Notes: generated by a model not told the origin, from the letters alone. A stretch of 64,000 nt of DNA from Candidatus Doudnabacteria bacterium (GCA_016218585.1 JACRDK010000030.1:24277-88276), one strand, 5' to 3'. Numbered from the stretch's first letter, positions 34,247-60,777 are shown. Numbers and translations: made by a program.

Positions 34247-34287
34247 AAAACAGATTTACAGATACCTACAGATAAAAACTACCACCC

Positions 34288-34650
34288 TTTTGGGGTGGTA
34301 GTTTTTATTGCGCCAAGCAAACTCATAAGCCGAATTCTGTTTTAAAATAATCATCTATCTTGTCCCGATGTTGCCATCGGGATCGAGCAGCCTACCAAAT
34401 TTGGCCTTGCACTCAAGTAAGGATTTGGCCGTTTCACTCCCGCATTGCTGCGGGAACAGTCCAGCTCTTTTTTGCAAAAGGGTTGGACTACTTAGCCTTT
34501 CGGCATCAGTCGTTTCTGTTCGCACCTCTAGGATTACTCCCGACGGGAATTACCCGCTACCATTCTTGATAACTCTATAGAGGTTATCAAATAAGTGTTC
34601 GGACTTTCCTCCCCGCCCTTTGGATTGCATTAAAGACAATTTTGAATGCG
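34288..34650 (-). ncRNA. rnpB: RNase P RNA (bacterial type), minus strand; exact ends approximate
   Basis: The reverse complement contains the universally conserved P4 strand GGGCGGGGAGGAAAGUCCGAAC, GGGAGUGAAACGGCC, GCAAGGCCAAAU...GGUAGGCUGCUCGAUCC and the 3' P4 partner ACAGAAUUCGGCUUAU, in canonical order. GC-rich relative to its surroundings. The track ORFs at 34360-34580 lie within it and are non-coding artefacts. Confidence 0.8.
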
Positions 34651-34941
34651 CTTGCGTAAGTGCCCCCACGAGCTACCATATTGCTTAAGCTTAATTTCTC
34701 TTATTAGCGCATCCTTTTTATTAGCGTACGCTTCGTAATAAACTAATTTAAACGGAGCGTAAGCTTTTGTCGCTGTTTCTTTAGAAGCATTATGTTGAGA
34801 AAATCTTGCTTTTAAATCACCGGTTTGACCGATGTAAATAAAATCAGACTTTATACTCTTAATTATGTAAACATAATGCATATGCAATCCAAAGAGCGGG
34901 GCGATTATTCGGTTTGCTTGGAGCAACCAGTATAATAGCAT
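34630..34941 (-). CDS. GIY-YIG nuclease-domain small protein
   Basis: YVYIIKSIKSDFIYIGQTGDLKARFSQHN (GIY..YIG..R..H.N core); 103 aa; its 3' end abuts or overlaps the 5' end of rnpB on the same strand. Confidence 0.7.
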   Translation of the reverse strand: MLLYWLLQANRIIAPLFGLHMHYVYIIKSIKSDFIYIGQTGDLKARFSQHNASKETATKAYAPFKLVYYEAYANKKDALIREIKLKQYGSSWGHLRKRIQNCL

Positions 34942-35016
34942 TATTTGACATTAATGTCAATATATAGTGTAATATAACCCTTTTTCTTAAGAAAAAGACG
35001 TGGTATAATAAGGAGT

Positions 35017-36450
35017 ATGAAAAAGACCGAACTTCTTTTTAACTTAATTTCCATTCCGGTGGACGCTATTTCCTTGCTTTGTGCGGGAATTGCGTCTTTT
35101 TATTTGCGCCAAAAAACCACCACCATTGTCGGGCCAATTATTTACCAATTGGAAATAAACAGTTTCCTGTCCGTGGTCTACAAAATAATTTTGTTTTTAA
35201 TTATCCTGTTTGCGCTGCTTGGTTTGTATAACTTAAAGGGCACCCGCAAATTTATTTCTGAGTTGGGCAGGATTGTCGTCGGCGAGTCGCTCGGGCTTTT
35301 GCTAGTTATATTATTATTCTTTTTTAATCAAAATATTTTCCCATCCAGGTTCATAATTTTGGCTACTTGGGGTTTAGGGATAGTTTTTGTTATTTGCGGC
35401 CGTTTAATTTTAAAACTTTTCCAGACATTTTTGTTTGCTAAAAATATCGGCCTGCATAAATTAATTGTTATAAAAGGCGGCGTGGAGCAGCCGGTTATTG
35501 AGAGCGTTTATAAAAACAGGCGCAATGGCTACGAAATTGTAGCCGAATTGCCGGTCAATGAAAAACTTTTGGAAAAACTGGAAGAGTTTTACAACCGCGG
35601 ACAAATAGACGAAATTCTCCAAACTAACGCCGGATTGGGTGACGCTGATAATTTAAAATTGGTTCAGTTTGCCCGCGGCAAAGGGCTAAAGTTTAGTTTT
35701 GTTCCAAATTTGTTCGAGGTGCAGCGCAACATTATTGAAACAGAAAGCGTGAATGGCTTGCCGGTAATTAGTTTAAAAAATACCCCGTTGGACGGCTGGG
35801 GAAAAGTTATAAAAAGAATTTTGGATGTTGTTGTGAGTTTTGTTTGCCTGTTGTTAACCTCGCCGCTTTTTTTAATAATTACAATTGCAATTAAACTTGA
35901 TTCCAAAGGCAAAGCAATATACTCCGCCTTGCGCGGAGGCCGCGGAAAAGATTTTCGGTTTTACAAATTCCGCAGCATGTATCAGCACTTAAGCGTTGGA
36001 AAAGAATATGGCGGGGAAAACGCGGAAAAAATCAGGCAGGAGCTGTGGCATAAAAATGACCGCGGCGGGGAAAATGGCCCGTTCTTAAAAATTAAGGACG
36101 ACCCCAGGGTTACTAAAGTTGGGAAGTTTTTGCGCCGCAGCAAGTTAGACGAAATTCCGCAGTTTTGGAATGTATTAAAAGGGGATATGAGCATGGTTGG
36201 TCCCAGGGCTCATGTTTTGGACGAAGTTGAACGTTATAGGAACCGCTATCCAAGAATGTTTAGCATTAAGCCGGGAATTTTTGGGCTTTCCCAAATTGCC
36301 CAGGTATCCTGGCCGGACTTGCCGTTTGAAGAAGAAATTCGCCTAAATACTTTTTACATAGAAAATTGGTCCGTCTGGCTGGACATAAAAATTTTGGCAA
36401 AGACTTTTTGGCTGTTATTTTTTGCCAAAAAACCAAAAACCGATTATTAA
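35017..36450 (+). CDS. Polyprenyl-phosphate sugar phosphotransferase (initiating glycosyltransferase, WbaP/WcaJ-like)
   Basis: N-terminal TM bundle, CoA-binding-like central region, C-terminal bacterial sugar transferase domain (MSMVGPRAHVLDE..., PGIFGLSQIAQVSWPDLPFEEEIRLN...YIENWSVWLDIKIL). Confidence 0.85.
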   Translation: MKKTELLFNLISIPVDAISLLCAGIASFYLRQKTTTIVGPIIYQLEINSFLSVVYKIILFLIILFALLGLYNLKGTRKFISELGRIVVGESLGLLLVILLFFFNQNIFPSRFIILATWGLGIVFVICGRLILKLFQTFLFAKNIGLHKLIVIKGGVEQPVIESVYKNRRNGYEIVAELPVNEKLLEKLEEFYNRGQIDEILQTNAGLGDADNLKLVQFARGKGLKFSFVPNLFEVQRNIIETESVNGLPVISLKNTPLDGWGKVIKRILDVVVSFVCLLLTSPLFLIITIAIKLDSKGKAIYSALRGGRGKDFRFYKFRSMYQHLSVGKEYGGENAEKIRQELWHKNDRGGENGPFLKIKDDPRVTKVGKFLRRSKLDEIPQFWNVLKGDMSMVGPRAHVLDEVERYRNRYPRMFSIKPGIFGLSQIAQVSWPDLPFEEEIRLNTFYIENWSVWLDIKILAKTFWLLFFAKKPKTDY

Positions 36451-36459
36451 ATTTTAAAC

Positions 36460-37617
36460 ATGAATGTTGCCTTAGCTCATGATAGTTTAACGCAGTTGGG
36501 GGGTGCTGAGCGCGTGCTGGATGCTTTGCACGAAGTTTATCCAGACTCTCCGGTTTTTGTTTTAGTGATGGACAAAAAGCTTAAGCAAAAATATCAGGCC
36601 TGGGATATTCGCACTTCGTGGCTGCAGGTTATTTATAATTTTTTGCCAAAACTGCAGTATTTGTTGCCGTTAATTCCTTTGGCTGTTTCCTCTTTAGATT
36701 TTAGCGGCTACGACGTGGTAATTTCTTCCAGCTCAGGGTTTATTAAAAATATAAAAACCCCCAAAAATAGCATTCATATAAATTATTGCCATACTCCTAC
36801 CAGATTTTTGTGGAGCGAACCGGAATATGTTGACCAGGAAGTGCCAAAAATTTTAAGGCCGCTGGCAAAATTATTTTTAGCCTGGATGAAAAAATGGGAC
36901 TTTAAGGGCGCGCAAAGAGTAAATTATTTTTTAGCCAATTCCAAAGAAGTGCAAAAAAGAATTACTCAATATTATAAACGCGGAAGCGAAGTAATTTATC
37001 CATTTGTTGATACAGCTTTCTGGAAGCCAAGTAAGTGGCGTCATTCTGAGGGATTGCAGCCGACCGAAGAATCCCAAAATGGAAATCCAACGAATCTCGT
37101 TCAAAATGCCGCAGCAGGCAAAAGCAACTATTTTTTGTTAGCCGGACGGCTGCAAGCGCACAAAATGAATGAATTGATAATAAATATTTTTAATAAACTA
37201 AAACTGCCGCTCCATGTAGTTGGAACCGGCAGGCAGGAAGAATATTTAAAATCAATTGCCGGCCCCAATATTACTTTTTTAGGCCGGGTTACCGATGAGC
37301 AGTTAAGAAGTGAATACAGCTCGGCATTGGCTTTTATTTACCCCCAGGTGGAAGATTTTGGCCTTATGCCGCTGGAAGCTGCCGCTTGTGGGACCGCAAC
37401 GATTGCTTACGGCAAAGGTGGCGCGCTTGAGACAGTTATGCAGAATGCCACAGGAGAGTTTTTTTATTCATATAATCCGGAAGAGATTTCCAAACTAATA
37501 ATTTCCTTTAATCCGGAAAAATATTCTCAAGAAGTCTTCCGCCGCCAGGCAGAAAAATTTAGTAAGGATAAATTTAAAAGCGAAATTGTAAATTTTATTA
37601 ATTCTTTAAATTTATAA
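36460..37617 (+). CDS. Family 4 glycosyltransferase
   Basis: FIYPQVEDFGLMPLEAAACGTATIAYGKGGALETV. Confidence 0.85.
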   Translation: MNVALAHDSLTQLGGAERVLDALHEVYPDSPVFVLVMDKKLKQKYQAWDIRTSWLQVIYNFLPKLQYLLPLIPLAVSSLDFSGYDVVISSSSGFIKNIKTPKNSIHINYCHTPTRFLWSEPEYVDQEVPKILRPLAKLFLAWMKKWDFKGAQRVNYFLANSKEVQKRITQYYKRGSEVIYPFVDTAFWKPSKWRHSEGLQPTEESQNGNPTNLVQNAAAGKSNYFLLAGRLQAHKMNELIINIFNKLKLPLHVVGTGRQEEYLKSIAGPNITFLGRVTDEQLRSEYSSALAFIYPQVEDFGLMPLEAAACGTATIAYGKGGALETVMQNATGEFFYSYNPEEISKLIISFNPEKYSQEVFRRQAEKFSKDKFKSEIVNFINSLNL

Positions 37618-37618
37618 T

Positions 37619-38311
37619 ATGGAACTTAAAAATAAAGTAATTGTTATAACTGGTTCTAGTAAAGGCTTAGGTAAGGGTTTGGCTAAGGCATTTATTCAAC
37701 ATGGTTCCATTGTTGTTTTAAATGGCAGAAATAAAACCGAGTTAGATTCAGCCGCTAAAGAGCTTAATTGCTTTGCGCTAGTTGGTGATGTCTCCAAAGA
37801 GCAGGAGCTTGAAAGTTTAAAAGATAAAGTGTTAGAGAAATATGGAAAAATTGACGTATGGATTAACAATGCGGGCTTTTGGATTCCGCGTTCTACGGTG
37901 GAAGATACTGACTGGGCCGGGGTTGCTCACAAATTGTTTGAGGTTAATTTTTTCGGAACAGTTTTTGGCTCTAAAGTTGCCCTAACACAAATGAGGCGTC
38001 AAGGTTCCGGCGTTATTATAAATATTTTATCAACTGGGGCATTGGATGGCAGAGAAAAATCTTCGGCTTATCGTTCAAGTAAATTTGCTGCTGCTGGCTT
38101 TACCAAGTGTTTAAGGAGAGAGCTTGCTGGCAGCGGAATATCAGCGCTTTCAATTTATCCCGGTGGAATGAAAACTAATTTATTTGATGCAGAGATTCCA
38201 GAAGACTTTGATAAATATATGGAAGTCGATTTTGTAGCAGACAAGATTCTAAATAATCTTTTGAGTGACAAATCGGAAGAAGAATTAATTATTGCCAGGC
38301 CAAATAGATAA
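37619..38311 (+). CDS. Short-chain dehydrogenase/reductase (SDR) family oxidoreductase
   Basis: KVIVITGSSKGLGKGLAKAF (TGxxxGxG), NNAG, catalytic YRSSKFAAAGF (YxxxK). Confidence 0.85.
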   Translation: MELKNKVIVITGSSKGLGKGLAKAFIQHGSIVVLNGRNKTELDSAAKELNCFALVGDVSKEQELESLKDKVLEKYGKIDVWINNAGFWIPRSTVEDTDWAGVAHKLFEVNFFGTVFGSKVALTQMRRQGSGVIINILSTGALDGREKSSAYRSSKFAAAGFTKCLRRELAGSGISALSIYPGGMKTNLFDAEIPEDFDKYMEVDFVADKILNNLLSDKSEEELIIARPNR

Positions 38312-38317
38312 TTTATT

Positions 38318-39439
38318 ATGAAAATCGCGATTGATTTAAGAAGCTTGTCCAGCGGCAGCATATCGGGCGTAGAAAATTACTGTATAAACCTGGTAGACAG
38401 CCTGCTAAAACTGGATAAGGAAAACCAATACATACTATTTTACAATGCTTTTTCCAAAAAACTTTTGGGTGATTTTCACTTTGTAAATTCGCAAGTTAAA
38501 CACTCCAAGCTGCCAAATAAAGTTTTAAACTTGCTATTTAAAACAGGCATGATTAATGTGGAAAAATTGGCAGGGGAGTTTGACTTGTTTTTTATGCCAA
38601 ACTTAAATCAGTACAACATTTTGCCCGGCGCCAAGCTGGCAATAACCGTGCACGACCTGTCCCCGGTAATCACCCCGGAATTTTATGATGCGAAAAGGCG
38701 GCTCTGGCATAAATTTTTAAATTATAAAAAAGCATTTAACCGCGCCGATAAATTATTCGCGGTTTCCGAATACACCAAGAATGATCTTATAAAAGTTTTT
38801 GGCATAAATGAGGAAAAAATTAAAGTAATCTACCCTGGGCTAGACCACGGCTTATTTAACGAAAATATATCCGAAGAAAAACAAAGACAGGTTCGCAACG
38901 AATACGGCTTGCCGGGAAATTTCTTTTTGTTTTTAAGCACCGTTGAACCAAGGAAAAACCTTGCCGGATTAATTAAAGCGTTTGAGCAGGTTAAAAGCCC
39001 TGCCTCTTTGGTTGTGGCCGGGCGCTTGGGGTGGAAATACAGAAAAGATTTTGAGTTAATTAAACACAGCAAAAAAAGTGCAAAAATTAAGTATATTGGC
39101 TATATTAAAGAGAGCGACAAGCCGGCGCTAATAAAGTTAAGCAAGGCTTTGGTCTACCCGAGTTTCTACGAAGGGTTTGGCTTCCAACCCTTAGAAGCAA
39201 TGGCCATAGGCACTCCGGTTGTAGCTAGCCAGGTCACCTCTTTGCCCGAAGTTAGCAACGGCGCGGCTTTTTTGGTTAATCCATATAATGTTGGCGATTT
39301 AACTGCGGCTTTAGAAGCTGTCTCTGAAAACGAAAGTCTAAGGCAGTCTTTAATTTCAAAAGGCCTGGACAGAGCCCAAAAGTTTACTTGGCAAAAAGCG
39401 GCCGCAGAGGTTTTGGAAAATTTTAAATCTATAAAATAA
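38318..39439 (+). CDS. Family 4 glycosyltransferase
   Basis: EGFGFQPLEAMAIGTPVVASQVTSLPEV. Confidence 0.85.
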   Translation: MKIAIDLRSLSSGSISGVENYCINLVDSLLKLDKENQYILFYNAFSKKLLGDFHFVNSQVKHSKLPNKVLNLLFKTGMINVEKLAGEFDLFFMPNLNQYNILPGAKLAITVHDLSPVITPEFYDAKRRLWHKFLNYKKAFNRADKLFAVSEYTKNDLIKVFGINEEKIKVIYPGLDHGLFNENISEEKQRQVRNEYGLPGNFFLFLSTVEPRKNLAGLIKAFEQVKSPASLVVAGRLGWKYRKDFELIKHSKKSAKIKYIGYIKESDKPALIKLSKALVYPSFYEGFGFQPLEAMAIGTPVVASQVTSLPEVSNGAAFLVNPYNVGDLTAALEAVSENESLRQSLISKGLDRAQKFTWQKAAAEVLENFKSIK

Positions 39440-40566
39440 TGGCGAAAAGAATTGGTCTAGACATTAGAATATTTGGCAGCATGAATGGCGGAATTGGCCG
39501 CTATGCTTTTGAATTATTTACCAGAATTTTGGAGCTGGATAAAGAGAATCGCTACTTTTTATTTTACAACAAGAAAAATGTTGACTTTAAAGATTTGGAA
39601 AGTTTTAAGAAATTTCCAAACGCCGAGCCGGTGGAAACTTCGGTGCGCCATTACTCAATAGCCGAACAAAGTTTATTTGTAAAAACATTGAATGATTTAA
39701 ATTTAGATTTGGTTCATTTTCCAAATTTTAATGTCCCGTTTTTTTATAAAAAACCTTATGTGGTAACTATTCACGATATGGTTCACCATAAAATCAGCGG
39801 CAATAAAAAAAGCCATTTATTGCATTTTTATGCCTATAAAAAAATTATAGAAAACGCGGCAATAAAAGCTAAAAAAATTATTACCATTTCGGATTTTTCC
39901 AAGCAGGAAATAATTAAGTATTTAAACGCGGACCCGCAAAAAATAAGCGTTATTTATGAAGGAACGTCATTGGGGACTAATGTGGAAGAGTCTTTTGTGG
40001 CGGAAGTAAAAAAACGCTATTTGCTTAGCCGTCCTTATTTTTTGTTTGTCGGAGTTTTAGAGAGAAAAAAGAATATTATAAATTTAACCAGAGGGTTTGA
40101 TTATTTTTTACAGAAATATAAATTAAACGTTGATCTGGTTATTGCGGGAAAAATAGACAAACACTATCCGGAAATTAAGCATAAAGCAATGGACATTAAG
40201 CATCAAAACCATTTGGTTTTTACCGGCTACGTGGATGACGACGAACTGCGCGCTCTATATAAAGGGGCATATGCCTATGCCTCGGCTTCGCTGCATGAGG
40301 GTTTTGGTTTGCCCGGAGTGGAAGCCTTGTCTTTTGGCTTGCCCTTGCTTGTCTCCAACTTGCCGGTTTTTAATGAAGTTTATGACAACGCGGCTCTTTA
40401 CTTTAATCCGCTTGACCCAAAAGATATTGGTGAAAAAATGAATTTGCTTGTAAGAGACAATCAATTTTATTCCCAGGTTCAGGAAAAAAGCCATTCAAGA
40501 AGTTTGTTCTTTGACTGGAACAAAACCGCGCGCGAAACTTTGGCAATTTATAAACAAAATTTATGA
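39439..40566 (+). CDS. Family 4 glycosyltransferase
   Basis: EGFGLPGVEALSFGLPLLVSNLPVFNEV. Confidence 0.85.
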   Translation: MAKRIGLDIRIFGSMNGGIGRYAFELFTRILELDKENRYFLFYNKKNVDFKDLESFKKFPNAEPVETSVRHYSIAEQSLFVKTLNDLNLDLVHFPNFNVPFFYKKPYVVTIHDMVHHKISGNKKSHLLHFYAYKKIIENAAIKAKKIITISDFSKQEIIKYLNADPQKISVIYEGTSLGTNVEESFVAEVKKRYLLSRPYFLFVGVLERKKNIINLTRGFDYFLQKYKLNVDLVIAGKIDKHYPEIKHKAMDIKHQNHLVFTGYVDDDELRALYKGAYAYASASLHEGFGLPGVEALSFGLPLLVSNLPVFNEVYDNAALYFNPLDPKDIGEKMNLLVRDNQFYSQVQEKSHSRSLFFDWNKTARETLAIYKQNL

Positions 40567-41669
40567 GAATATTGTTGGTTGGCGGCGGCAGCGGCGGGCC
40601 GGTTTCACCGCTTCTGGCGGTCGCCGAAAAAATTAAATTAACGCACAGCCAGGCAAAATTTTTGCTGGTCGGCACTAAGACTGGCCCGGAAAAGGGGATG
40701 GCGGAAAACTACCGCATCCCGTTTTTGGCAATTCATAGCGGTAAGCTGCGGCGCTATTTTTCCTGGCAAAATTTTCTTTCCCCGGTTTTTATTATTGCCG
40801 GATTTTTCCAGTCCATAAAAATAATAAAAGATTTTAAGCCCGATTGTGTTTTTGGGGCCGGCAGTTTTGTCCAGGTGCCAATGGTTTGGGCGGCTTGGTT
40901 TTTGCGCGTGCCGGTTGTTATCCATCAACAGGATGTTTTTCCCAGCTTGGCAAATAAGCTTTGCCAATTGGCCGCAAGTAAAATTACCGTAACATTTTCC
41001 TCAAGCCTGTCCGCCTTTGCCAGCAACTTAGGGTTTTTTTATAAAAAAAAGCAGGACAAAGTAGTTCTTACCGGCAATCCATTTCGGCAGGAATTAGACC
41101 AGGGCTTAAAACTTCAAGCTTTAAAAGAGTTTAACTTAAAACCCGATATGCCAACCCTGCTGGTTTTAGGCGGAGGCACGGGAGCGGAATTCTTTACCAA
41201 GCTAATGTCGGAAGCTATGCCTATTTTGGGAAAAACCGCCCAGGTTATTCATTCTACCGGCAAGGGGAAAATGCCCAAAGAAAATTTTGAAAACTATTAT
41301 AAAACTGAATTTCTAAACTCAGGCCAGCTGGCTAACGCCTACGCGGCCGCGGATATTGTGCTTTCCCGGGCAGGGCTCGCGACTATTACCGAGTTGTCAT
41401 TTTTGGAAAAATTAAGTATAATTGTCCCCATGCCGCAGAGCCATCAGGAAATAAACGGAGCATATTTGTTAGGCAAAGAAGCGGCTATAGTTTTGCCCCA
41501 GGAAAAAATAAATGCGCGGAATTTTACTAATTTAATACGCAAATTAATTTTTGACGTAGAAGCGCAGAAGTTTTTTCAGAAAAATATGGGCAAACTAATG
41601 CCAAAAGAAGGCGCAAAAAAAATTGCGGAGATTATAATTAAAATTGCGGAAACTAACAATGCAGATTAA
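40563..41669 (+). CDS. murG: Undecaprenyldiphospho-muramoylpentapeptide beta-N-acetylglucosaminyltransferase
   Basis: MRILLVGGGSGGPVSPLLAVAEKI (the G-loop of MurG); a roughly 370-aa GT28 architecture; overlaps the upstream GT4 stop by 4 nt. Confidence 0.85.
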   Translation: MRILLVGGGSGGPVSPLLAVAEKIKLTHSQAKFLLVGTKTGPEKGMAENYRIPFLAIHSGKLRRYFSWQNFLSPVFIIAGFFQSIKIIKDFKPDCVFGAGSFVQVPMVWAAWFLRVPVVIHQQDVFPSLANKLCQLAASKITVTFSSSLSAFASNLGFFYKKKQDKVVLTGNPFRQELDQGLKLQALKEFNLKPDMPTLLVLGGGTGAEFFTKLMSEAMPILGKTAQVIHSTGKGKMPKENFENYYKTEFLNSGQLANAYAAADIVLSRAGLATITELSFLEKLSIIVPMPQSHQEINGAYLLGKEAAIVLPQEKINARNFTNLIRKLIFDVEAQKFFQKNMGKLMPKEGAKKIAEIIIKIAETNNAD

Positions 41670-42588
41670 TACAGCAAAACCGACTTTAGGACTGGCTTTT
41701 TCCGGCAGCGGCAACCGCAGTTCGTTTTATGTTGGATTTTTGGAAGTATTGGATGAGCACAGCATCACGGTTGACCATATTGCAGCCTGCAGCGGAGGGG
41801 CACTGGCAGCCGCGGCTTATGCTTGCGGCACATTGCCGGAATTTAAAGAGAAAATATTTAGCCTTACCAGAGATTCTTTGAAAAGCTATTTGGTTAGAAC
41901 GTCCAATAATGGGGGATTGTATAATATAGATTTATTTGAAGAGCTTATGAGGGAGTTCACCAAAGGCCAAAATTTTGAAGATGTCCGCCCATTAATGTCG
42001 TTCGTGGCTATTGATATTGAAACCGGAGAGAAAGTGGTTTTGTGCATGGGTGACATAGCAAAAGCCGCCAGGATTTCCTGCACCTTACCCGGGGTATTTG
42101 AACCGGTAAAGTGGGGAGGAAAAACTTTGGTAGACGGCGGTCTTCTCACAATGGTTCCCGGTTTTGCTTTAAAACGGGCTGGAGTGGATGTAAGTGTTGG
42201 AATAAATATGCGAGGCACTAAACATATTTTTACCGAATCGCAAATTAACGCAAAAAAAGTTTTAAACTTTTTCAAAAAAATATTGTTTATAAACGAACTG
42301 GAAGAACTGTTTGGAAATTTGTTAAAATTAGAAGAATTGGACTTTGAAAAAAACCCAAATTTTTTCCAGGTAGTGGGCAAGAGCTTGGATTTAGCCATTA
42401 AGGCAAATAAAAATCCAAAACCGGAAGACGAAGAATGCACGCTGGTAATTGAGCCAAAACTTCCAAGGCTAAAACAAAGCGAATTTAGCCCGGAAGCGGT
42501 TAAATATTATTATGAAATGGGGCGTGAAGTAGCGCTGCAGTATGTGCCAAAAATTAACGAATTATTAAAGGTAGGGGTAAAACAATGA
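41644..42588 (+). CDS. Patatin-like phospholipase
   Basis: GLAFSGSGNRSSFYVGFLEVL (oxyanion G-G-x-R/K), ACSGGALAAAAYA (GxSxG nucleophile), VDGGLL (catalytic Asp, DGG). Overlaps murG by 26 nt and murC by 4 nt. Confidence 0.8.
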   Translation: MRKLTMQINTAKPTLGLAFSGSGNRSSFYVGFLEVLDEHSITVDHIAACSGGALAAAAYACGTLPEFKEKIFSLTRDSLKSYLVRTSNNGGLYNIDLFEELMREFTKGQNFEDVRPLMSFVAIDIETGEKVVLCMGDIAKAARISCTLPGVFEPVKWGGKTLVDGGLLTMVPGFALKRAGVDVSVGINMRGTKHIFTESQINAKKVLNFFKKILFINELEELFGNLLKLEELDFEKNPNFFQVVGKSLDLAIKANKNPKPEDEECTLVIEPKLPRLKQSEFSPEAVKYYYEMGREVALQYVPKINELLKVGVKQ

Positions 42589-44054
42589 ACGAACTTATAA
42601 ATTTGGAAGAAATTTTACAGCCCGGAGGAAAAATTTATTTTGTGGGAATTGGCGGCATTGCAATGTCTGCCGTTGCCGGTATGGCTGCCAAGCTTGGGTT
42701 TGAAGTGGCGGGGTCAGACAGTAAAGAGCTTTACTCGCCCTCAAAGGAGATTTTGGCCGAGCATAAAATAAATTGTTTTCTTGGTTATAAAGCGGAGCAG
42801 GTTGCGGAGGCAAAAGCTAATGTTTATGTTTTGTCGGCCGGGGAGAATGAAAATAATCCGGAAGTGGACTACATAATAAAAAACAATTTGCCTCGGGTGT
42901 CCTTTGCCGAGCTGCTCTATTTTTTTAGCAAAGACAGCTTAAGAGTTGTTGTTGCAGGCACGCACGGCAAATCCACCACTACCGGCCTGTTAGGGCATTT
43001 ATTTAAAAATTTGGACAACAGTTCCTTTTTAGCCGGAGGAGTTTTGCAAAATTACCAAAGCAATTTTTATTTGGGAGACGGCCACTATTTTGTTTTTGAG
43101 GGAGATGAATACAAGGCTCAGTTCGACGATCCGAGCCCGAAGTTCCATTATTACAAACCGGATATTTTAGTGCTTACCAATTTGGAGTATGACCACCCGG
43201 ATTTGTTCCCGAACTTTGAAAGTTTGCAAAGCGAGTTTAGGCTGCTAATTGAAAAAATGCCGGAAGACGGGCTGATTGTTTATAATGCGGATGACGCCGA
43301 ACTAAGCAAACTCGTTCACGAGTCCAATATTTCTACTGTGAGTTTTGGCATAGATAATGAGGCGGATGTAAAAACAGAGCAGATTCAGTTTGGCTCCGAT
43401 TTTACAACTATTGAAGTGCTAAATAAATTTTCAAAAAATGTCGCCACGCATTTAATGGGGCAAACCGAGCAGTATAAAATTCAGCTCCCAGGTAAAATAA
43501 ATGTTTATAATGCCTTGGCGGGAATTGCCCTGCTGCGTTCTTTAGGTTTTGCCCAGGAGCAAATTGCGTTGGAACTTTTAAGCTACCTAGGAATTAAAAG
43601 AAGATTTGAAGTCGTTTCTAAAAAGGGCGGCATTACCATTATTGACGACTACGCGCACCACCCAACCGCGGTAAGCGAAACGCTAAAAGCCGCTAAATTA
43701 AAGTACCCTGATTCTAAAATTTGGGCTGTATTTGAGCCTCACACCTTTAGCCGCACCAAAGCAACAATAAACGAGCTGGCGGCAAGTTTTGACCAGGCAA
43801 ATGAAGTGCTGTTGTCCGAAATTTATCCGGCCAGAGAAAAAGCCAGTACGGGCGGAATAACTTCCGGAGATGTAATAAATGCAATTAAGGAGCATAATAC
43901 AAAACACAAAATACATAATACAATAAGGCATGTTGCCGACAAAGAGCAGGCACTAAATATTTTGCGAGAAGAATTAAAATCCGGAGATGTTGTCATTATT
44001 ATGGCCGTTGGCGCCTTTAACCGCCTGGCCTATGAATTAAAGGAGATTATATGA
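42585..44054 (+). CDS. murC: UDP-N-acetylmuramate--L-alanine ligase (MurC; Mpl-type ligase not excluded)
   Basis: IYFVGIGGIAMSAVAGMAAKLGFEVAGSD, GTHGKSTTTGLL (P-loop), YNADDAEL; position between murG and murB. Confidence 0.8.
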   Translation: MNELINLEEILQPGGKIYFVGIGGIAMSAVAGMAAKLGFEVAGSDSKELYSPSKEILAEHKINCFLGYKAEQVAEAKANVYVLSAGENENNPEVDYIIKNNLPRVSFAELLYFFSKDSLRVVVAGTHGKSTTTGLLGHLFKNLDNSSFLAGGVLQNYQSNFYLGDGHYFVFEGDEYKAQFDDPSPKFHYYKPDILVLTNLEYDHPDLFPNFESLQSEFRLLIEKMPEDGLIVYNADDAELSKLVHESNISTVSFGIDNEADVKTEQIQFGSDFTTIEVLNKFSKNVATHLMGQTEQYKIQLPGKINVYNALAGIALLRSLGFAQEQIALELLSYLGIKRRFEVVSKKGGITIIDDYAHHPTAVSETLKAAKLKYPDSKIWAVFEPHTFSRTKATINELAASFDQANEVLLSEIYPAREKASTGGITSGDVINAIKEHNTKHKIHNTIRHVADKEQALNILREELKSGDVVIIMAVGAFNRLAYELKEII

Positions 44055-44542
44055 ACGAATTTGGTGGAACCATAAATGAAGAAAATATCAAAAACAATAA
44101 GCCAGCAAATAGAGCTGAGGAGCTGTATTCGGAGATGTTTACTGGAGAAGAGGATAAATTCCTCAAAAGCTACAAAACTTTAAGCAGAGAAGTTCCAGAA
44201 AAAATACAAAATGATAAACTAAAATATAATAGATTATCAAATGCGATATCCATTTTTGAGGAAAAATATTCTCACGACAAAGAAAAAACAATTAGAGATT
44301 TTGAAGATCATCTTTCAATAGAGTTAAGCGGGTTACTTACCTCAACCCCTGCTGGCAAGAGAGATAGTGATTATTTTAAATTAGTTGAAGTTATAAAATC
44401 AATAATTGATTCAACAAAAGACTTTAATGAGTTTGGCCTTAATGATTCCGACCATCTCTCTAAGGCAAAAGAAGAACTTAAAAGGCATCTGGAGGATATT
44501 GATAGAGATTTGAATCTGATAAACAAAAAGCAAAATAAATAA
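44051..44542 (+). CDS. Hypothetical acidic coiled-coil protein inserted between murC and murB (translationally coupled on both sides)
   Basis: 163-aa ORF, Lys/Glu/Asp-rich, no recognisable motif; ATGA overlap with murC and its stop immediately precedes the murB ATG. Confidence 0.5.
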   Translation: MNEFGGTINEENIKNNKPANRAEELYSEMFTGEEDKFLKSYKTLSREVPEKIQNDKLKYNRLSNAISIFEEKYSHDKEKTIRDFEDHLSIELSGLLTSTPAGKRDSDYFKLVEVIKSIIDSTKDFNEFGLNDSDHLSKAKEELKRHLEDIDRDLNLINKKQNK

Positions 44543-45601
44543 ATGCAAATCCAGGAAAATGTTATTTTAGCCCCATATACAACATTTAAAATTGGCGGAC
44601 CGGCCAGGTATTTTTGCATTGTAAAAGACCAGTTCGACGCCCTGGAAGCCTATGAATTTGCAAAAGAAAAAAAGTTGAAAACTTTTGTGTTAGGCGGCGG
44701 CAGTAATTTGCTTATTAGCGACGAAGGTTTTGACGGTTTGGTAATAAAAGTAGTTAATAAAGGCATTGAGGTGCTCAAAGAAGACGAATCTCGCGTTTTA
44801 TTGCGCGTAGCAAGCGGCGAAGTTTGGGACGAAGTGGTGCGTTTTGCCGTTACCAATAATTGGTGGGGAATAGAAAACTTGTCCCATATTCCGGGTTCCA
44901 GCGGAGCCATTGCCGTGCAGAATGTTGGAGCTTACGGACAGGAAGCCAGCAGGGTAATTGAATCTGTTACGGTTTTTAATAAAGACACCCACCAAATAAT
45001 TTCCATTAATAATCAGGATTGCAAATTTGCATATCGTAAAAGTATTTTTAACAGCGAGGAAAAAGGAAAGTATATTATTTTTAATATAGATTTTAACTTA
45101 TCAAAAATACCGGCTCCGGTTTTATCGTATCGCGATTTAAGCCAAAAATTTACAAACAGCATTCCTTCCTTGTCGGAAATTAGGAGCGCAGTTATAGAAA
45201 TTAGAAATAAAAAATTCCCGTTTCCGGTGGAAGCAAAAAATGGCAATGCCGGATCGTTTTTTAAAAATCCAATTTTAGAAGGCAGAAGTTATCAGGAGTT
45301 AAAAAATAAATTAGCCAATTCGTTTGGCGCCTCGGCCGTGGAAGCTTTGGAAAAAAAGAAATTTGAGGAAGGGAACGTAATTAAAGTCCCCGCAGCTTAT
45401 TTAATAGATATTTGCGGACTTAAAGAACTTAAAAATGGCGGCGCGGCAATAAATAAAAATCAGCCTCTGGTTATTATTAACCACAGCGGCAAAGCTACGG
45501 CAAAAGACGTGCTTGGCCTTGCGGAAAAAGTTAAAGAAGAGGTTTATTCTAAAACCGGAATAAGTTTATTTTTTGAACCGGAGTTAATAGGCTTTAACTA
45601 A
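44543..45601 (+). CDS. murB: UDP-N-acetylenolpyruvoylglucosamine reductase
   Basis: ILAPYTTFKIGGPARYF, FAD-binding PCMH domain (FVLGGGSNLLISDEGFDGLVIK), C-terminal MurB domain. Confidence 0.9.
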   Translation: MQIQENVILAPYTTFKIGGPARYFCIVKDQFDALEAYEFAKEKKLKTFVLGGGSNLLISDEGFDGLVIKVVNKGIEVLKEDESRVLLRVASGEVWDEVVRFAVTNNWWGIENLSHIPGSSGAIAVQNVGAYGQEASRVIESVTVFNKDTHQIISINNQDCKFAYRKSIFNSEEKGKYIIFNIDFNLSKIPAPVLSYRDLSQKFTNSIPSLSEIRSAVIEIRNKKFPFPVEAKNGNAGSFFKNPILEGRSYQELKNKLANSFGASAVEALEKKKFEEGNVIKVPAAYLIDICGLKELKNGGAAINKNQPLVIINHSGKATAKDVLGLAEKVKEEVYSKTGISLFFEPELIGFN

Positions 45602-45705
45602 AGGGGTATTTATTTTAGTCCTTATAAATAGGTTATTTAACCCCAGGGCAATTATTATCTCATGCTATAATAAAGAAGTAGATATTTAAGCAAAAAACTA
45701 AAATT

Positions 45706-46026
45706 ATGAAATTCAACCTAAAGGCCACCAATACCACCGCCACGCCGGCAATTAAAAATTTTATTGACGAAAAACTCCAGTCAATAGAAAAATTTATTAA
45801 ATCGGAAGACAAGATTAGGGTAGAAATTGAAGTTGATAAAAAAAGAAGCAAAGAGCCGCCATTTCGCGCGGAAATTGATATTCAGCCAAAAGGACACTAC
45901 GCGGAAGCCAGGGGTATGGACGTTTATGCGGCATTTGACCTTGTTTTGCCAAAAATCAAGGAACAGCTTACCAGAAACAAGGACAAGCAGGTAAGTATGC
46001 GCCGAAGACGCGCTAAGGTTATGTAG
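45706..46026 (+). CDS. hpf: Ribosome hibernation-promoting factor / RaiA family
   Basis: [31 protein letters not shown]...[43 protein letters not shown]. Confidence 0.85.
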
Positions 46027-46045
46027 TTGAACAAAAATTGATATT

Positions 46046-46084
46046 TCTGTCCGCCAGTTAACATTTGACTGGCGGGCTTTTCAG
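46046..46084 (+). terminator. Rho-independent terminator after hpf
   Basis: ctgtccgccagt taacatttg actggcgggcttttcag. Confidence 0.75.
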
Positions 46085-46162
46085 ATTCGTGGATTTTTGG
46101 TATAATTTAACCACTGTTTTGTGGGGAAATTCAAGAATTTTAGCATAAAAGAAAGGATATTA

Positions 46163-48901
46163 ATGTCATTTTTAACCAAACTTTTTACCGGAGAAACCAG
46201 TCCTTTAGAGAAGTATGCCAAAGAATTGCAGGAAGCAAACTCCTATAAAGAAGAAATTGCTGCGCTTACCCAGGATCAGATTAAGGCAGAAATTGAAAAA
46301 TTTAAGCAAGAACTTAAAAAGCTTGAGTCTGATAAAGAAGTTTTTGCTCATTTAACAAAAATTTCACCGCGGGTATTTGCAATAACCAGAGAAGCATCTA
46401 AAAGAAGCATTGGCCAATTCCATTACGACGTACAAATGGTTGGCGGCTTTGCTTTGGCCAGCAGCAAAATTGCTGAAATGAAAACCGGTGAAGGTAAAAC
46501 CCTTACCGCGACTTTGCCATTAGTGCTTTATGCCTTAGCAGGACGCGGCGCTCATTTGGTTACAGTTAACGATTATTTGGCCAGGTGGCAGGCTTCTTTA
46601 ATGGGGCCAATTTATAAGTACTTAGGCATGTCCGTAGCTTCCATTCAGCATGAAGCGTCTTTTATGTTTGACGACGGCTACCAGCCGGAAGCGGAAGAAA
46701 TAGAAAGGCTGGAAGGGGAGACGCAAGGATTGGTGCTGGACGTAAAACATATGCGCCCCATATCCAGGCGCGAAGCTTATGCCGCGGATATTACTTACGG
46801 CACGAACAACGAATTTGGTTTTGATTATTTGCGCGACAATATGGTGCAGAGCGTTCAGCAGCTGGTGCAGCGCGAATTATTTTTCTCTATTGTGGACGAA
46901 GTCGACAGTATTTTAATTGACGAGGCCAGAACCCCGTTAATTATTTCTATGCCGGACTCAGAGCCAACCAGCAAATATTATGAATTTGCTAAATTAGTTG
47001 ACCGCCTGCAGGAAGAAACAGATTACACGGTAGATGAAAAACATAAAGCCGCCTCTTTAACCGACGCCGGCATAAACAAAATTGAAGGTATTTTAAAAGT
47101 GCCTAATATTTATGACACCTCCAAGGGCGTAACCACTATTCACCACATTGAGCAGGCTTTGCGCGCCAGGACTTTGTTTAAAAAAGATCGCGACTACGTG
47201 GTTAGCGAAGGTGAAATTATTATTGTAGATGAATTTACCGGCAGATTAATGTTTGGCCGTCGTTATAGCGAAGGTTTGCACCAGGCAATAGAAGCTAAAG
47301 AAAATGTGCAAATTCAGCAGGAAAGCAAAACCTTAGCCACAATTACCTTCCAAAACTTATTCCGTTTGTATAAAAAACTTTCCGGTATGACCGGTACCGC
47401 TAAAACGGAAGAAGAGGAATTCTTTAAAATTTATCAGCTTACTGTAGAACAGATTCCAACCAATAAGCCAAATGTCAGGCAAGATTTGTCCGACGCGGTT
47501 TATAAAACGGAAACCGCCAAATTTAAAGCTATTGCCCAGGAAGTAAAGGCTCGCTACAAAAAAGGCCAGCCAGTGTTAATTGGTACAGTTAGTATTGCTA
47601 AAAATGAAATTTTGGCAGACTTCTTAAAACAGGAAGGCTTGCCCTTTGAAATTTTAAACGCCAAAAACCACGAACGTGAAGCGCATATTATTTCCCAAGC
47701 AGGACGCCCGGGGCAAATAACGCTTGCCACCAACATTGCCGGACGCGGGGTAGACATTTTGCTTGGCGGCAACCCGGTAGACCAGGAAGAGGCCGCAAAA
47801 GTCAGGGAAGCCGGCGGTTTGCATATTTTAGGAACAGAGCGCCATGAGTCGCGCCGTATAGACAACCAGTTGCGCGGACGCGCCGGACGCCAAGGCGACC
47901 CCGGAAGTTCTCAGTTCTTTGTGTCTATGGAAGACGACCTAATGAGGCTATTCGGCGGCGACCGGATGAAGAGCTTAATGAATACTTTGGGTTTGCCCGA
48001 TGACCAGCCGGTAGAAGCTAAAATGGTTTCCAGAAGCATTGAACAGGCGCAAAAGAAGATTGAAGGATTGAACTTTGATACCAGAAAACATGTTTTGGAA
48101 TTTGACGATGTTTTAAACCATCAACGCAATATAATTTATAAAAAGCGCCGCGGTTTTTTGGTTGGCACCGAAGAGAGCAAGAAGACAGATTTGAAACAGG
48201 AAATTCTAGGGATGGCCAAGGACGAACTGGTTGAAGTCGCTGAATTTAACTTAAACCAGTTAGACGAGCACGGAGGGAAAAAAGAAGACTGGGCGAATTT
48301 GTTTAAGACTGTTGGCACAATGGTGCCGGTTGATCAAAAATTGATAGATAAGGTTAAGGAAGCCGCTAAGGACGCGGCAGACAGAGAATTTGCGGTTGCC
48401 GATACCTTCTACAAAGCGGTAGAAGAAAACTGGGAAGCCAAAGAAAAAGAAATGGGCAAAGAAGTGTTTGAGGGAGCACAGAGATTTGTTGCCCTGCAAT
48501 CTTTAGACAATCTTTGGATGGAACATTTGGACACAATGGATCATTTGCGCGACAGCGTCCGCCTTCGCGGTTATGGGCAACGCGATCCGTTGGTGGAATA
48601 TAAAAAAGAAGGCTATGTAATGTTCCAGAATTTGGTAAAGGAAATGAATAAACAAATTGTTTATACCATTTTCCATATTACCGTTCAGGTAAACCAGCAG
48701 CCAAACCAGCAAAAACCGCTTAAGGATTTGGTAACCAGTTCAGCGAGTGGCTCAATGCAAACCGGCGGGCAAACAGATCCAAAATACGAAGGCGTAGGCC
48801 GCAACGACCCCTGCCCATGTGGAGCGATAAATCCTGAAACAGGCAAGCCATATAAGTTCAAGCGTTGTGGGATGATAAACGCTAGCTACCATAAAAAATA
48901 G
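46163..48901 (+). CDS. secA: Preprotein translocase ATPase SecA (start placed at MSFLTKLF; the ORF track gives an upstream ATG at 46121)
   Basis: MSFLTKLFTGE... N-terminus typical of SecA, DEAD-like motor (MKTGEGKTLTATLP, VDEVDSILIDEARTPLIIS), C-terminal Zn finger CPCGAINPETGKPYKFKRCG. Confidence 0.95.
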   Translation: MSFLTKLFTGETSPLEKYAKELQEANSYKEEIAALTQDQIKAEIEKFKQELKKLESDKEVFAHLTKISPRVFAITREASKRSIGQFHYDVQMVGGFALASSKIAEMKTGEGKTLTATLPLVLYALAGRGAHLVTVNDYLARWQASLMGPIYKYLGMSVASIQHEASFMFDDGYQPEAEEIERLEGETQGLVLDVKHMRPISRREAYAADITYGTNNEFGFDYLRDNMVQSVQQLVQRELFFSIVDEVDSILIDEARTPLIISMPDSEPTSKYYEFAKLVDRLQEETDYTVDEKHKAASLTDAGINKIEGILKVPNIYDTSKGVTTIHHIEQALRARTLFKKDRDYVVSEGEIIIVDEFTGRLMFGRRYSEGLHQAIEAKENVQIQQESKTLATITFQNLFRLYKKLSGMTGTAKTEEEEFFKIYQLTVEQIPTNKPNVRQDLSDAVYKTETAKFKAIAQEVKARYKKGQPVLIGTVSIAKNEILADFLKQEGLPFEILNAKNHEREAHIISQAGRPGQITLATNIAGRGVDILLGGNPVDQEEAAKVREAGGLHILGTERHESRRIDNQLRGRAGRQGDPGSSQFFVSMEDDLMRLFGGDRMKSLMNTLGLPDDQPVEAKMVSRSIEQAQKKIEGLNFDTRKHVLEFDDVLNHQRNIIYKKRRGFLVGTEESKKTDLKQEILGMAKDELVEVAEFNLNQLDEHGGKKEDWANLFKTVGTMVPVDQKLIDKVKEAAKDAADREFAVADTFYKAVEENWEAKEKEMGKEVFEGAQRFVALQSLDNLWMEHLDTMDHLRDSVRLRGYGQRDPLVEYKKEGYVMFQNLVKEMNKQIVYTIFHITVQVNQQPNQQKPLKDLVTSSASGSMQTGGQTDPKYEGVGRNDPCPCGAINPETGKPYKFKRCGMINASYHKK

Positions 48902-49035
48902 AGTGAAATCGGCCGGAGCTTTAGCGAAGGTGGACGGCAGCGGAAAAAAGTTTAAGAAATGCCACGGGAAGTAGGAGACAGGTAAAATGGTAAAATGAAA
49001 GAGAGGTCAGACGACTGTCCAACCTCCCCAGTTTT

Positions 49036-49215
49036 CTACCGATGTTCGGTTATGGCGACACACGTGTGTTCACCTATGAGTTTCGAGTAATACATCGCCG
49101 TTACCCGTAACTCCGCGTGTTTGCCGCAAAATTGCGACATCGCTTCGGCGAGAGTTTTACCGCTCCATCTAACTTCCCACACGCCATTACCGTAGTCCTT
49201 CTCGATATAATCCAT
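49036..49215 (-). CDS. Hypothetical 59-aa protein encoded on the minus strand inside a GC-rich cassette with a perfect sigma-70 consensus promoter
   Basis: Manual translation: MDYIEKDYGNGVWEVRWSGKTLAEAMSQFCGKHAELRVTAMYYSKLIGEHTCVAITEHR. Upstream on the minus strand: TTGACA-N17-TATAAT and SD aaaggag 7 nt before ATG. About 55% GC. Preferred over the overlapping + strand track ORF 49117-49359. Confidence 0.45.
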   Translation of the reverse strand: MDYIEKDYGNGVWEVRWSGKTLAEAMSQFCGKHAELRVTAMYYSKLIGEHTCVAITEHR

Positions 49216-49334
49216 TTCCCGCTCCTTTTAGATTTTCATATAATTATAGCATATAATTATAAATCTGTCAATATGAGGGAAAAGCCCCTTAAAAAATGGG
49301 TAAATCGTGTGTTTAAGGAAAAAATGGAAAAAAT

Positions 49335-49886
49335 ATGCAATTTAATGAAGATAAGCTAATTGAAATAGCAAAACCCTACTTTAATAGAGCCAGGGCAGGT
49401 GATTGGAATCATGCTGTTAGAGTGGTAAAATGGGTAAAAGAACTTGGAAAAGGCAGGGCAGACTTGGATACTTTGGTTACCGCCGCCTATCTTCATGATG
49501 TTGGTTGGTCGAGCGTTGCCCCCAAAGATAAGCTGAACTTAGATGAAATGTTGTTGCTGGAAAATCAGGCAAATAAAAATTCGAGTATAAAAGTAAAAGA
49601 AGTGCTAGGGCAATGTGCTTTTGCGAGCATAGATATTAATTCTGTAATTAGGCTAATTGGAGCGGCTGATAAACACTCATCTGAAAAGGAAGACGAAGCC
49701 ATTATTGTTGATGCTGATAGTTTAAGCAAATTATGCATAGAACATCTTCAAGAAAAGTATCAAAAAAACAGCTTCATAAAAGTGCTAAAACTGTGGGATG
49801 ATGAACTAAAAACCAGAGTAAAGACAGAAAAGGCCAAAGAGTTGTTTCCAAAATTGCTAATTGATTTGAAAGGTAAGTTAATTTAA
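49335..49886 (+). CDS. HD-domain metal-dependent phosphohydrolase
   Basis: NHAVRVVKWVKELGK...LVTAAYLHDVGW (H...HD motif); 183 aa. Confidence 0.8.
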   Translation: MQFNEDKLIEIAKPYFNRARAGDWNHAVRVVKWVKELGKGRADLDTLVTAAYLHDVGWSSVAPKDKLNLDEMLLLENQANKNSSIKVKEVLGQCAFASIDINSVIRLIGAADKHSSEKEDEAIIVDADSLSKLCIEHLQEKYQKNSFIKVLKLWDDELKTRVKTEKAKELFPKLLIDLKGKLI

Positions 49887-49933
49887 TATCGTATAAGCCT
49901 AATATGAAAGTTTTTTGACTTCGAGTCATAAAT

Positions 49934-50329
49934 ATGTCAAATGTAATGGAAAAAATAGGTAATGCAGACAATTTAATAAAAGAAGCTAAATCAATTATTG
50001 ATTTGAGGTATAAAAAAGGTGCGCATTCAGTGGGTGCAGCCTTAAGAACAAAATCGGGAAAGATTTACACAGGCATAAGCATAAAAGGTTTAAAGTTGGA
50101 TTTGTGCTCAGAATGGACTGCAATAGGCAGAGCATTTGTTGAAGGAGAAACGGAAATTGAATCTATCGTTGCGGTTCACAGAAAAGAAGATGGAACTTTT
50201 GAATTTTTCCCGCCTTGCGGATTATGCAGAGAGCTGTTAACTAAATATTGTCCCGATGCTTTGGTCATATTTTCAGAAAATGAATTTAAAAAAGCATCAG
50301 ACTTATTGCCGTCAGCCTGGAAAAGATAA
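49934..50329 (+). CDS. cdd: Cytidine deaminase (small tetrameric CDA-type zinc deaminase)
   Basis: CSEWTAIG (the C/H-A-E motif equivalent) and PPCGLCRELL (PCxxC zinc ligands); 131 aa. Confidence 0.75.
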   Translation: MSNVMEKIGNADNLIKEAKSIIDLRYKKGAHSVGAALRTKSGKIYTGISIKGLKLDLCSEWTAIGRAFVEGETEIESIVAVHRKEDGTFEFFPPCGLCRELLTKYCPDALVIFSENEFKKASDLLPSAWKR

Positions 50330-51411: not shown

Positions 51412-51840
51412 ATGGAGCAAGGAAATCAGCAAAGACCAATAGTCGGTATAGGCGTGATGCTTTTTAAAGATGGAAAAATTTTATTGGGTAAAAGAAAGGG
51501 TCATGTTGGTTTTGGCACGTATGGCTGGCCAGGTGGCAAGCAAGAGTTTAAGGAATCTTTTGCAGCTTGTGCCAAGCGAGAGGTTATGGAAGAAGCCGGA
51601 ATCGAAATTAGCGATATAAAATTTTTAAGGCTGATGAACTACATTTCTGAAAACGGAACTCATTTTTGCGATATTCAATTAACTGCTCAATGGTTTTCCG
51701 GAGAGCCTAAAACATTAGAATCAGACAAATGCGAAGGCTGGCAATGGTATAATATAAATAATTTACCCGAGCCGATGTTTGAACCGACGATAACCGCCAT
51801 CGAAGCGTATAAAACAGGAAAAAACTTTTTTGACAACTAA
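51412..51840 (+). CDS. NUDIX hydrolase
   Basis: Nudix box GWPGGKQEFKESFAACAKREVMEEAGIEI (Gx5Ex7REUxEExGU). Confidence 0.85.
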   Translation: MEQGNQQRPIVGIGVMLFKDGKILLGKRKGHVGFGTYGWPGGKQEFKESFAACAKREVMEEAGIEISDIKFLRLMNYISENGTHFCDIQLTAQWFSGEPKTLESDKCEGWQWYNINNLPEPMFEPTITAIEAYKTGKNFFDN

Positions 51841-51842
51841 TT

Positions 51843-52959: not shown

Positions 52960-52962
52960 AAT

Positions 52963-59194: not shown

Positions 59195-59270
59195 TATTGC
59201 CAAAAGCTCAGATTTTGCTATAATACTCCAAGCAGGTTTTTTTAGCCTATTTTTTATTGAAATTTAACAC

Positions 59271-60764: not shown

Positions 60765-60777
60765 ACTTATCATTAAG

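Follow-up and report, generated by a model that had tools for sequence, protein, structure and literature searches.

What role do a patatin-like hydrolase gene and a small gene of no known family play inside a block of peptidoglycan precursor genes? The question is raised by a 64,000-nucleotide (nt) stretch of a Candidatus Doudnabacteria bacterium genome (GCA_016218585.1, JACRDK010000030.1:24277-88276; hereafter the window), in which a predicted patatin lies between murG and murC and an open reading frame (ORF) of 163 amino acids (aa), X163, lies between murC and murB. Synteny and identity comparisons with related loci establish that the patatin belongs to the fixed core of the operon, that it has been inherited vertically and that its rate of evolution is about as low as that of murG; they identify the 163-aa ORF as a genome-specific orphan in a hypervariable slot. 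Our reading of the whole, to which we assign a probability of roughly 55%, is that of a translationally coupled Doudnabacteria envelope operon with a core patatin acyl hydrolase, in which the 163-aa ORF is an accessory passenger.

We compared the arrangement across three samples of loci. A patatin-motif scan of one genome per GTDB species gave 33 loci, in which murG lies directly 5' of the patatin in 33 of 33, murC 3' of it in 32, the glycosyltransferase pair GT4a-GT4b 5' in 31 and murB in 30, the genes missing from these arrays falling at contig ends. A MurC-seeded metagenome scan, unbiased for the patatin, was swamped by the generic Mur-ligase motif and gave three Doudna-type loci, the other 77 MurC loci serving as an outgroup baseline only; three further contigs carry a divergent, longer patatin subfamily at ~40% identity. 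These six loci all have the same array, patatin included. Barring contig ends, murG-patatin-murC adjacency therefore runs through all 39 related loci and is not unique to this assembly, a possibility that the initial annotation had held open. Searching within 6 kb of the 77 other MurC loci with the patatin family hidden Markov model (HMM; E<1e-3) returned no match (0/77). Compared with the window, the patatin has a median identity of 55%, against 56% for MurG, 65% for MurC and 77% for SecA, and is thus as constrained as a housekeeping enzyme. The gaps between genes fall into "cold" junctions, such as MurG/patatin, and "hot" ones, such as MurC/MurB: a gap of 20 nt or less is found at MurG/patatin in 31 of 33 loci (in registers of -17, -14, -11, -8, -4, -1 and 0), at patatin/MurC in 26 of 32 and at GT4b/MurG in 23 of 31. 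The gap between MurB and the downstream hibernation factor HPF spans 23-798 nt (20 nt or less in 0/27), and that between HPF and SecA always exceeds 100 nt (20 nt or less in 0/22). The patatin of one relative, a metagenome-assembled genome (MAG) from long reads (L032, 8001-8983; loci are cited by number where they must be told apart), aligns in pieces, its best segment covering 58%, and the gaps that separate it from murG and murC are unusually large, so that the gene is a frameshifted pseudogene or else the product of a sequencing indel.

The initial annotation had described murG, the patatin, murC, the 163-aa ORF and murB in this order on the plus strand, with the patatin embedded among the mur genes and translationally coupled to its neighbors. 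All five ORFs are present as described, and the coupling is borne out. The block makes up the 3' half of an envelope operon (35017-45601) of ten tightly coupled genes on the same strand. The features of this operon and its 3' neighbor are as follows:

35017-36450, plus strand: polyprenyl-phosphate phosphoglycosyl transferase (WbaP-like), first gene of the array (Pfam Bac_transf, 1e-57, and CoA_binding_3)
36460-37617, plus strand: GT4 glycosyltransferase GT4u (Pfam Glycos_transf_1 and Glyco_transf_4)
37619-38311, plus strand: short-chain dehydrogenase (SDR), accessory insert (Pfam adh_short, 1e-45)
38318-39439, plus strand: GT4 glycosyltransferase GT4a, conserved core (Pfam)
39439-40566, plus strand: GT4 glycosyltransferase GT4b, conserved core, overlapping GT4a by 1 nt and murG by 4 nt (Pfam)
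40563-41669, plus strand: murG-type GT28 glycosyltransferase (Pfam GT28 N and C domains)
41659-42588, plus strand: predicted patatin-like Ser-Asp acyl hydrolase, 309 aa; the longest ORF runs from TTG 41644 (PF01734, 93 bits, and motifs)
42585-44054, plus strand: murC, UDP-N-acetylmuramate--L-alanine ligase (TIGR01082, 357 against a cut-off of 335)
44040-44045, plus strand: Shine-Dalgarno AAGGAG within the last murC codons (ELKEII, then stop), read from the sequence
44051-44542, plus strand: X163, 163-aa orphan ORF in the murC/murB slot, hydrophilic, helical in a low-confidence model (no Pfam or NCBIfam match)
44543-45601, plus strand: murB, UDP-N-acetylmuramate dehydrogenase (NF000755, 313 against a cut-off of 277)
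45706-46026, plus strand: ribosome hibernation factor (S30AE/HPF), conserved 3' neighbor after a true spacer (Pfam PF02482)

Nine consecutive junctions within 36450-44543 measure 10 nt or less (9, 1, 6, -1, -4, -11, -4, -4 and 0), and the coupling of this array is tighter than the window's own baseline, where 18 of 51 junctions do so. The ATGA overlaps at patatin/murC and at murC/163-aa ORF can be read directly from the sequence, as can the abutment of the 163-aa ORF stop (TAA) on the murB ATG. The overlap of murG with the patatin is likewise real, but its proposed length of 26 nt presumes the first possible start, TTG 41644. From ATG 41659 the overlap is 11 nt (ATGCAGATTAA), and because 20 of 20 aligned patatin homologues start within a few residues of this ATG, the shorter overlap is probably the true one. 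MurG scores below its equivalog cut-offs (TIGR01133, 220 bits against 250; NF009102, 216 against 339), although murG outscores every other family by a wide margin; sub-threshold equivalog scores are probably common among divergent proteins of the Candidate Phyla Radiation (CPR).

The upstream half of the operon is conserved as well. Of the 26 related loci with an upstream match, 25 have a phosphoglycosyl transferase homologue at the corresponding place, as do L115 and L116, and GT4u is kept 3' of it in related loci; GT4a is in place in 31 of 33 loci at a median identity of 60%, the two exceptions being contigs that start within murG. The SDR has no homologue at the GT4u/GT4a junction in any related locus covering that junction. 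Its sole match among the related loci (34% identity) lies in the murC/murB slot of L033, which suggests that the operon has a second accessory slot at GT4u/GT4a and that similar cargo fits either. An Rfam scan of 34000-50000 gave no RNA-family match, and a promoter and terminator scan of the same interval found sites no commoner than in shuffled sequence, making it uninformative on the operon boundaries.

The locus had been labeled a dcw-type (division and cell wall) cluster, a description that we do not retain: the 45 window ORFs scanned with Pfam include no mraZ, mraW, ftsI, murE, murF, mraY, murD, ftsW or ftsQAZ domain, nor ftsL or any other dcw gene beyond murG, murC and murB. The likeness lies in the order of these three, which is that of the distal end of many dcw clusters and recurs in 11 of the 77 unrelated MurC loci, whereas here murG, murC and murB are attached to the end of a glycan-assembly module (one phosphoglycosyl transferase gene and three GT4 genes), with hpf and secA after them. 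Nor is a non-peptidoglycan gene at this site as unusual as had been supposed, since non-mur genes between murG and murC have precedent elsewhere. A conserved CvpA-like (Colicin_V production) membrane protein of ~180 aa occupies this junction in 8 of the 77 loci (L039, L041, L044, L048, L060, L074, L097 and L098) and a PMT-type glycosyltransferase in one, the low-GC locus L063 (3980-5179). These genes share with the patatin their position and strand; their products, in contrast, are integral membrane proteins, come from other, unrelated families and lineages (GC 0.47-0.60 for the loci) and include no lipase.

What kind of enzyme, then, does the operon carry? The patatin matches PF01734 at 93.2 bits (cut-off 27.7) over residues 17-172, and a PDB profile search returned PlpD of Pseudomonas aeruginosa (5fya/5fqu) as its sole match (1e-27). 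Its motifs are S-G16-S-G18-N-R20 at the oxyanion loop, A43-C-S45-G-G at the nucleophile elbow and L-V-D159-G-G at the catalytic Asp. Counted over 220 family members, the nucleophile Ser45 and the D159-G-G motif are both present in 220 of 220, so the concern that the catalytic Ser and Asp might prove missing does not apply. G16 is kept in 219 and R20 in 213, and the middle Gly of the loop is replaced by Ser or Ala in ~45%. The elbow is not a strict G-x-S-x-G: it reads A-C-S-G-G in the window, and among the 220 it opens with Ala in 202 and with Gly in 2 and closes with G, A or S, such that A-x-S-x-G/A/S is a signature of the clade. Given that A-x-S-x-G elbows exist in active Bacillus lipases, the alanine is no argument for inactivity.

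An AlphaFold2 model of the patatin from a 21-sequence alignment (predicted local distance difference test, pLDDT, 83; predicted TM-score, pTM, 0.82) forms a single domain over the whole protein. Foldseek placed PlpD first (5fya, E 2e-14, TM 0.76 on target length), followed by CapV/CapE, plant patatin, iPLA2-beta, VipD, cPLA2 and ExoU, and all 35 PDB fold matches at E<=1e-3 belong to the patatin/cPLA2/ExoU/VipD class. Because the first core (catalytic) strand begins at residue 10, the protein has no N-terminal signal peptide, and a hydropathy scan for membrane segments gave a maximum not above that of the soluble MurC, with no transmembrane segment. It resembles the PlpD patatin domain and E. 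coli RssA-type proteins in being a single domain of ~300 aa with the same oxyanion loop, Ser and Asp-Gly-Gly positions, and differs from both in its low identity (~21%) and its A-x-S-x-G/A/S elbow. The type Vd translocator and POTRA domain of PlpD have no counterpart here, and RssA is set apart both by score (88.1 bits against the NCBIfam NF007623 equivalog cut-off of 272) and by gene placement, which here is in a mur/glycan operon, not beside rssB or alone. Collectively, motifs and model point to a cytoplasmic lipid acyl hydrolase as the most likely identity of the protein. It adds a new subfamily member to a well-known family of enzymes, in a conserved operon context for which we found no published description; a literature search for links between patatin-like proteins and CPR biology also found none.

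We then turn to the murC/murB junction, whose gap is bimodal (-11 to +2654 nt): 12 of 29 loci have at most 20 nt here, and 16 of 29 more than 100 nt. Cargo in the relatives includes two other, extra patatin-like families (L002 10535-13045, L018 10415-11734 and L033 10375-11939), a PIF1/RecD-like helicase that matches PADLOC candidate-defence models (L005 8827-10770), a DUF3800 protein, a MazE-like peptide, a retropepsin-like aspartyl protease and small membrane proteins; L010 10581-10754 and L032 10746-11138 are further cargo-bearing intervals. Additional patatin genes hence recur at this slot in three genomes. We considered and rejected the idea that they are recent duplicates of the core patatin, as just one of them is recognized by the HMM of the core family, and that at a weak E of 1e-4.

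Closer inspection of the junction suggests how an insertion may be accommodated. In most relatives MurC ends in Glu-Leu-Lys-Glu-Ile-Ile/Leu, whose Lys-Glu codons constitute a purine-rich Shine-Dalgarno, and in the insert-free relatives L003, L009, L019 and L024 the murB ATG follows within a few bases of these codons. In the window the ATG of the 163-aa ORF takes the place of the murB ATG, 5 nt after AAGGAG. The sequence ahead of murB, …AAAATAAATAA (junction …aaaataaataa/atgcaaatc), provides that gene with no Shine-Dalgarno of its own. Given this and the position of its ATG, 1 nt after the ORF stop, ribosomes would reach murB by termination-reinitiation after the 163-aa ORF. We infer that the insertion preserved the coupling instead of breaking it.

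The 163-aa ORF itself matched nothing other than itself in a word-indexed search of 5.8 billion clustered proteins and in an exhaustive phmmer search of 1.84 billion representatives. It showed no similarity, at the DNA or six-frame level, to 117 fetched related loci or the rest of the window, and nothing significant in Pfam, NCBIfam, PADLOC, PHROGs, the PDB or phage tblastn. Two faint candidates were set aside: the N-terminal region of B. subtilis CtpB (PDB phmmer E 0.016, domain E 0.13) was judged a chance match, with the window's CtpB-like protease at E 0.3, and the charged, helical slot ORFs of L030 (155 aa), L012 (178 aa), L018 (147 aa) and L020 (80 aa) gave a best E of 0.27. A search for insertion scars and flanking repeats around the ORF found only short chance repeats. 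Its GC content is 31.3% against 41.6% for window genes, and this deficit of ~10 points fits a recent acquisition. The insert is not an artefact of MAG assembly, because the order patatin-murC-163-aa ORF-murB recurs at 100% identity in a Logan assembly made independently from run SRR12113407.

Despite its isolation, the ORF looks coding and is probably translated: its frame stayed open in 0 of 20,000 shuffles, and its in-frame codon score is 0.20 versus -0.2 to -1.5 in the other five frames. The product had been described as an acidic coiled-coil protein. Its acidity stands (pI 5.4, hydrophilic), and its helicity is a low-confidence prediction, since a single-sequence AlphaFold2 model (pLDDT 45) is all-helical, with seven short helices, and too poor for a fold search. 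The coiled-coil element shrinks to heptad-like spacing at residues 136-157, within the last ~25 residues. Together, these comparisons suggest that the ORF is probably an accessory passenger, not a conserved peptidoglycan or division component.

In the reading that we favor, the operon runs in the order phosphoglycosyl transferase, GT4, (SDR), GT4a, GT4b, murG, patatin, murC, variable slot, murB, and the overlapping stop and start codons would cause the patatin to be made in fixed proportion to MurG and MurC. The enzyme would be a cytoplasmic or membrane-peripheral lipid acyl hydrolase of the phospholipase A/lysophospholipase type, like PlpD and RssA, and its most probable job would be to deacylate or remodel acyl-lipids that the cell must acquire, timed with wall-precursor synthesis. 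We suggest lipid remodeling because CPR cells have been reported to be without lipid synthesis and rich in lysolipids (PMC7242380). A role for the patatin in processing scavenged lipids, as the initial annotation proposed, is plausible, and so is a functional tie to envelope growth, given its intact catalytic residues and lineage-wide placement. A bolder version, in which the patatin would be an obligatory partner of lipid II synthesis at the membrane beside MurG and would convert scavenged diacyl lipids to lysolipids and free fatty acids, strikes us as distinctly improbable; if true, the assembly of wall precursors would be tied directly to lipid acquisition or to curvature control, and the enzyme behind the lysolipid-rich CPR membranes would have a name. 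For the question of how CPR/Patescibacteria build and maintain membranes without lipid synthesis, the patatin offers a concrete, clonable candidate lipid-remodeling enzyme encoded by a fixed wall-precursor operon gene across a candidate phylum. The patatin gene is also useful as a Doudnabacteria synteny marker. For the slot, the comparisons show that streamlined CPR operons have discrete insertion sites that take strain-specific cargo with the coupling kept intact, and that a small gene of no known family inside a conserved operon can be cargo instead of a conserved component, as appears to be the case here.

Several observations weigh against this reading. The relatives were mostly found by seeding with the patatin motif, so that patatin-less Doudnabacteria would mostly have been missed, and only three loci are unbiased in this respect. 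All 52 window genes lie on one strand of a streamlined genome, where adjacency could be historical and not functional. The nucleophile elbow departs from the canonical G-x-S-x-G, its last Gly often being Ala or Ser, and given this and the sub-cut-off RssA score, activity and specificity may differ from those of characterized patatins. Lastly, real genes have a mean codon score of 0.34 (standard deviation 0.08), which places the 163-aa ORF in the low tail, and translation of this ORF is read from sequence features only.

The murG-patatin-murC arrangement could be a frozen accident, a single insertion in the Doudnabacteria ancestor made costly to excise by the overlapping codons, with the enzyme performing general housekeeping lipolysis unrelated to the wall. 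We judge this unlikely, if still a serious contender. In its favor, 35% of window junctions are at 10 nt or less and every gene is on one strand, HPF and SecA are also conserved neighbors though unrelated to peptidoglycan synthesis, and the same operon accepts unrelated inserts in two slots. However, the MurG/patatin register varies from -17 to 0 and yet is tight in 31 of 33 loci, which points to a junction that evolves without opening, unlike murC/murB or HPF/SecA, and the idea departs from our preferred reading only by denying a benefit of co-expression. Alternatively, the patatin might be integral to the lipid-linked glycan or lipid II pathway, as an esterase or acyltransferase on an undecaprenyl-linked intermediate or GT4/GT28 glycolipid, or as a membrane-conditioning partner of MurG. 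Such a part would suit a gene that is placed strictly between murG and murC throughout the lineage and shares overlapping codons with them, as would the upstream phosphoglycosyl transferase and three GT4 enzymes, all of which use membrane lipid acceptors, the undecaprenyl-diphosphate-synthase-type gene upstream in L117, and the use of the patatin fold for transacylation by some PNPLA family members. We nevertheless find this doubtful, as no known step of lipid II or undecaprenyl-linked glycan synthesis requires a carboxyl-ester hydrolase, no fusion to a GT28 or Mur-ligase domain occurs among the ~220 family proteins listed, and the CvpA-like and PMT genes at the same junction elsewhere imply a site that tolerates functionally diverse genes. 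An offensive or defensive effector, either a lipase secreted to act on host membranes or a phospholipase of abortive infection resembling CapV, would account for structural neighbors that include the toxins ExoU and VipD and the effectors CapV and CapE of cyclic oligonucleotide-based antiphage signaling systems (CBASS), and episymbionts do need access to host lipids. CapV and CapE share the patatin fold and are second-tier structural matches (E 1e-10 to 1e-12), but at 15-17% identity. The patatin has no match among PADLOC defence-system models, no adjacent cyclase (CD-NTase) or other defence partner where murG and murC stand instead, no signal peptide ahead of a fold that begins at residue 10, and a single domain without passenger, translocator or sensor extension. 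Combined with core-gene conservation at housekeeping rates, this makes an effector role highly unlikely.

For the 163-aa ORF, the initial annotation had suggested a lineage-specific division or peptidoglycan-synthesis factor, and its perfect translational coupling between murC and murB, together with a strong Shine-Dalgarno, is what such a factor would display. We regard this suggestion as scarcely tenable: the ORF occurs in this genome only, in a hypervariable slot, with no homologue among the proteins or related loci searched. In 12 of 29 relatives murC and murB directly abut, the remaining relatives hold unrelated slot genes (helicase, extra patatins, MazE-like, protease, small membrane proteins), and its GC content lies ~10 points under the window-gene mean. 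It is unlikely, though far less remote, that the ORF is nonfunctional, an AT-rich filler open by chance and tolerated because it preserves the ribosome hand-over to murB. The lack of homologues, the AlphaFold2 pLDDT of 45, the low-tail codon score and a composition rich in K, E, N and D, as AT-rich sequence would give, all fit this possibility; a 163-codon frame that opened in none of 20,000 shuffles, a true frame scoring far above the other five, and a start exactly 5 nt after AAGGAG with a stop exactly before the murB ATG speak against it, and translation of the ORF would be expected even so.

The remainder of the window provides the setting for the operon. We identified 52 genes in its 64,000 nt, all on the plus strand, at a coding density of ~88%; no antisense ORF in the window scored as coding or had a database match. 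Cumulative GC skew rises monotonically after ~8 kb, and together with the strand bias this fits a single replichore arm with complete gene-strand bias. Upstream of the mur block the Pfam content consists of ribosomal-protein genes, rpoA and a SIMPL-domain gene, then the glycan genes, and 3' of it lie hpf and secA. Outside the 45 scanned ORFs fall SecA (46121-48901), which was identified by homology only, and four ORFs at 57491-62979, each 120 aa or longer.

Several other genes deserve mention. A 121-aa "23S rRNA intervening sequence protein" (bAvd-like four-helix bundle; 24678-25043) stands alone between alaS and a PGI-like gene, with an atypical composition (GC 0.33) and a codon score of -0.03, the lowest of the genes tested. 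The neighboring alanyl-tRNA synthetase (22834-24630) is only 598 aa long, consisting of the catalytic core and second additional domain, whereas the typical bacterial enzyme is much longer. Two large ORFs, at 26452-28131 (559 aa) and 11713-13566 (617 aa), have no significant Pfam domain. At 13695-14282, a 195-aa ORF combines an MGS-like domain with the first 59 positions only of the AICARFT/IMPCHase profile, and reads as a putative stand-alone IMP-cyclohydrolase-like purH fragment. Genes for NUDIX, guanylate-kinase-like and Ham1/ITPase proteins and a second guanylate-kinase-like paralogue form a nucleotide-housekeeping mini-cluster at 51412-53562, with overlapping or near-abutting junctions. 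Finally, a probable sortase-anchored adhesin module occupies 11-7289, where genes for a sortase-domain protein, a PKD-domain protein and a DUF11-repeat surface protein of 1443 aa lie in this order.

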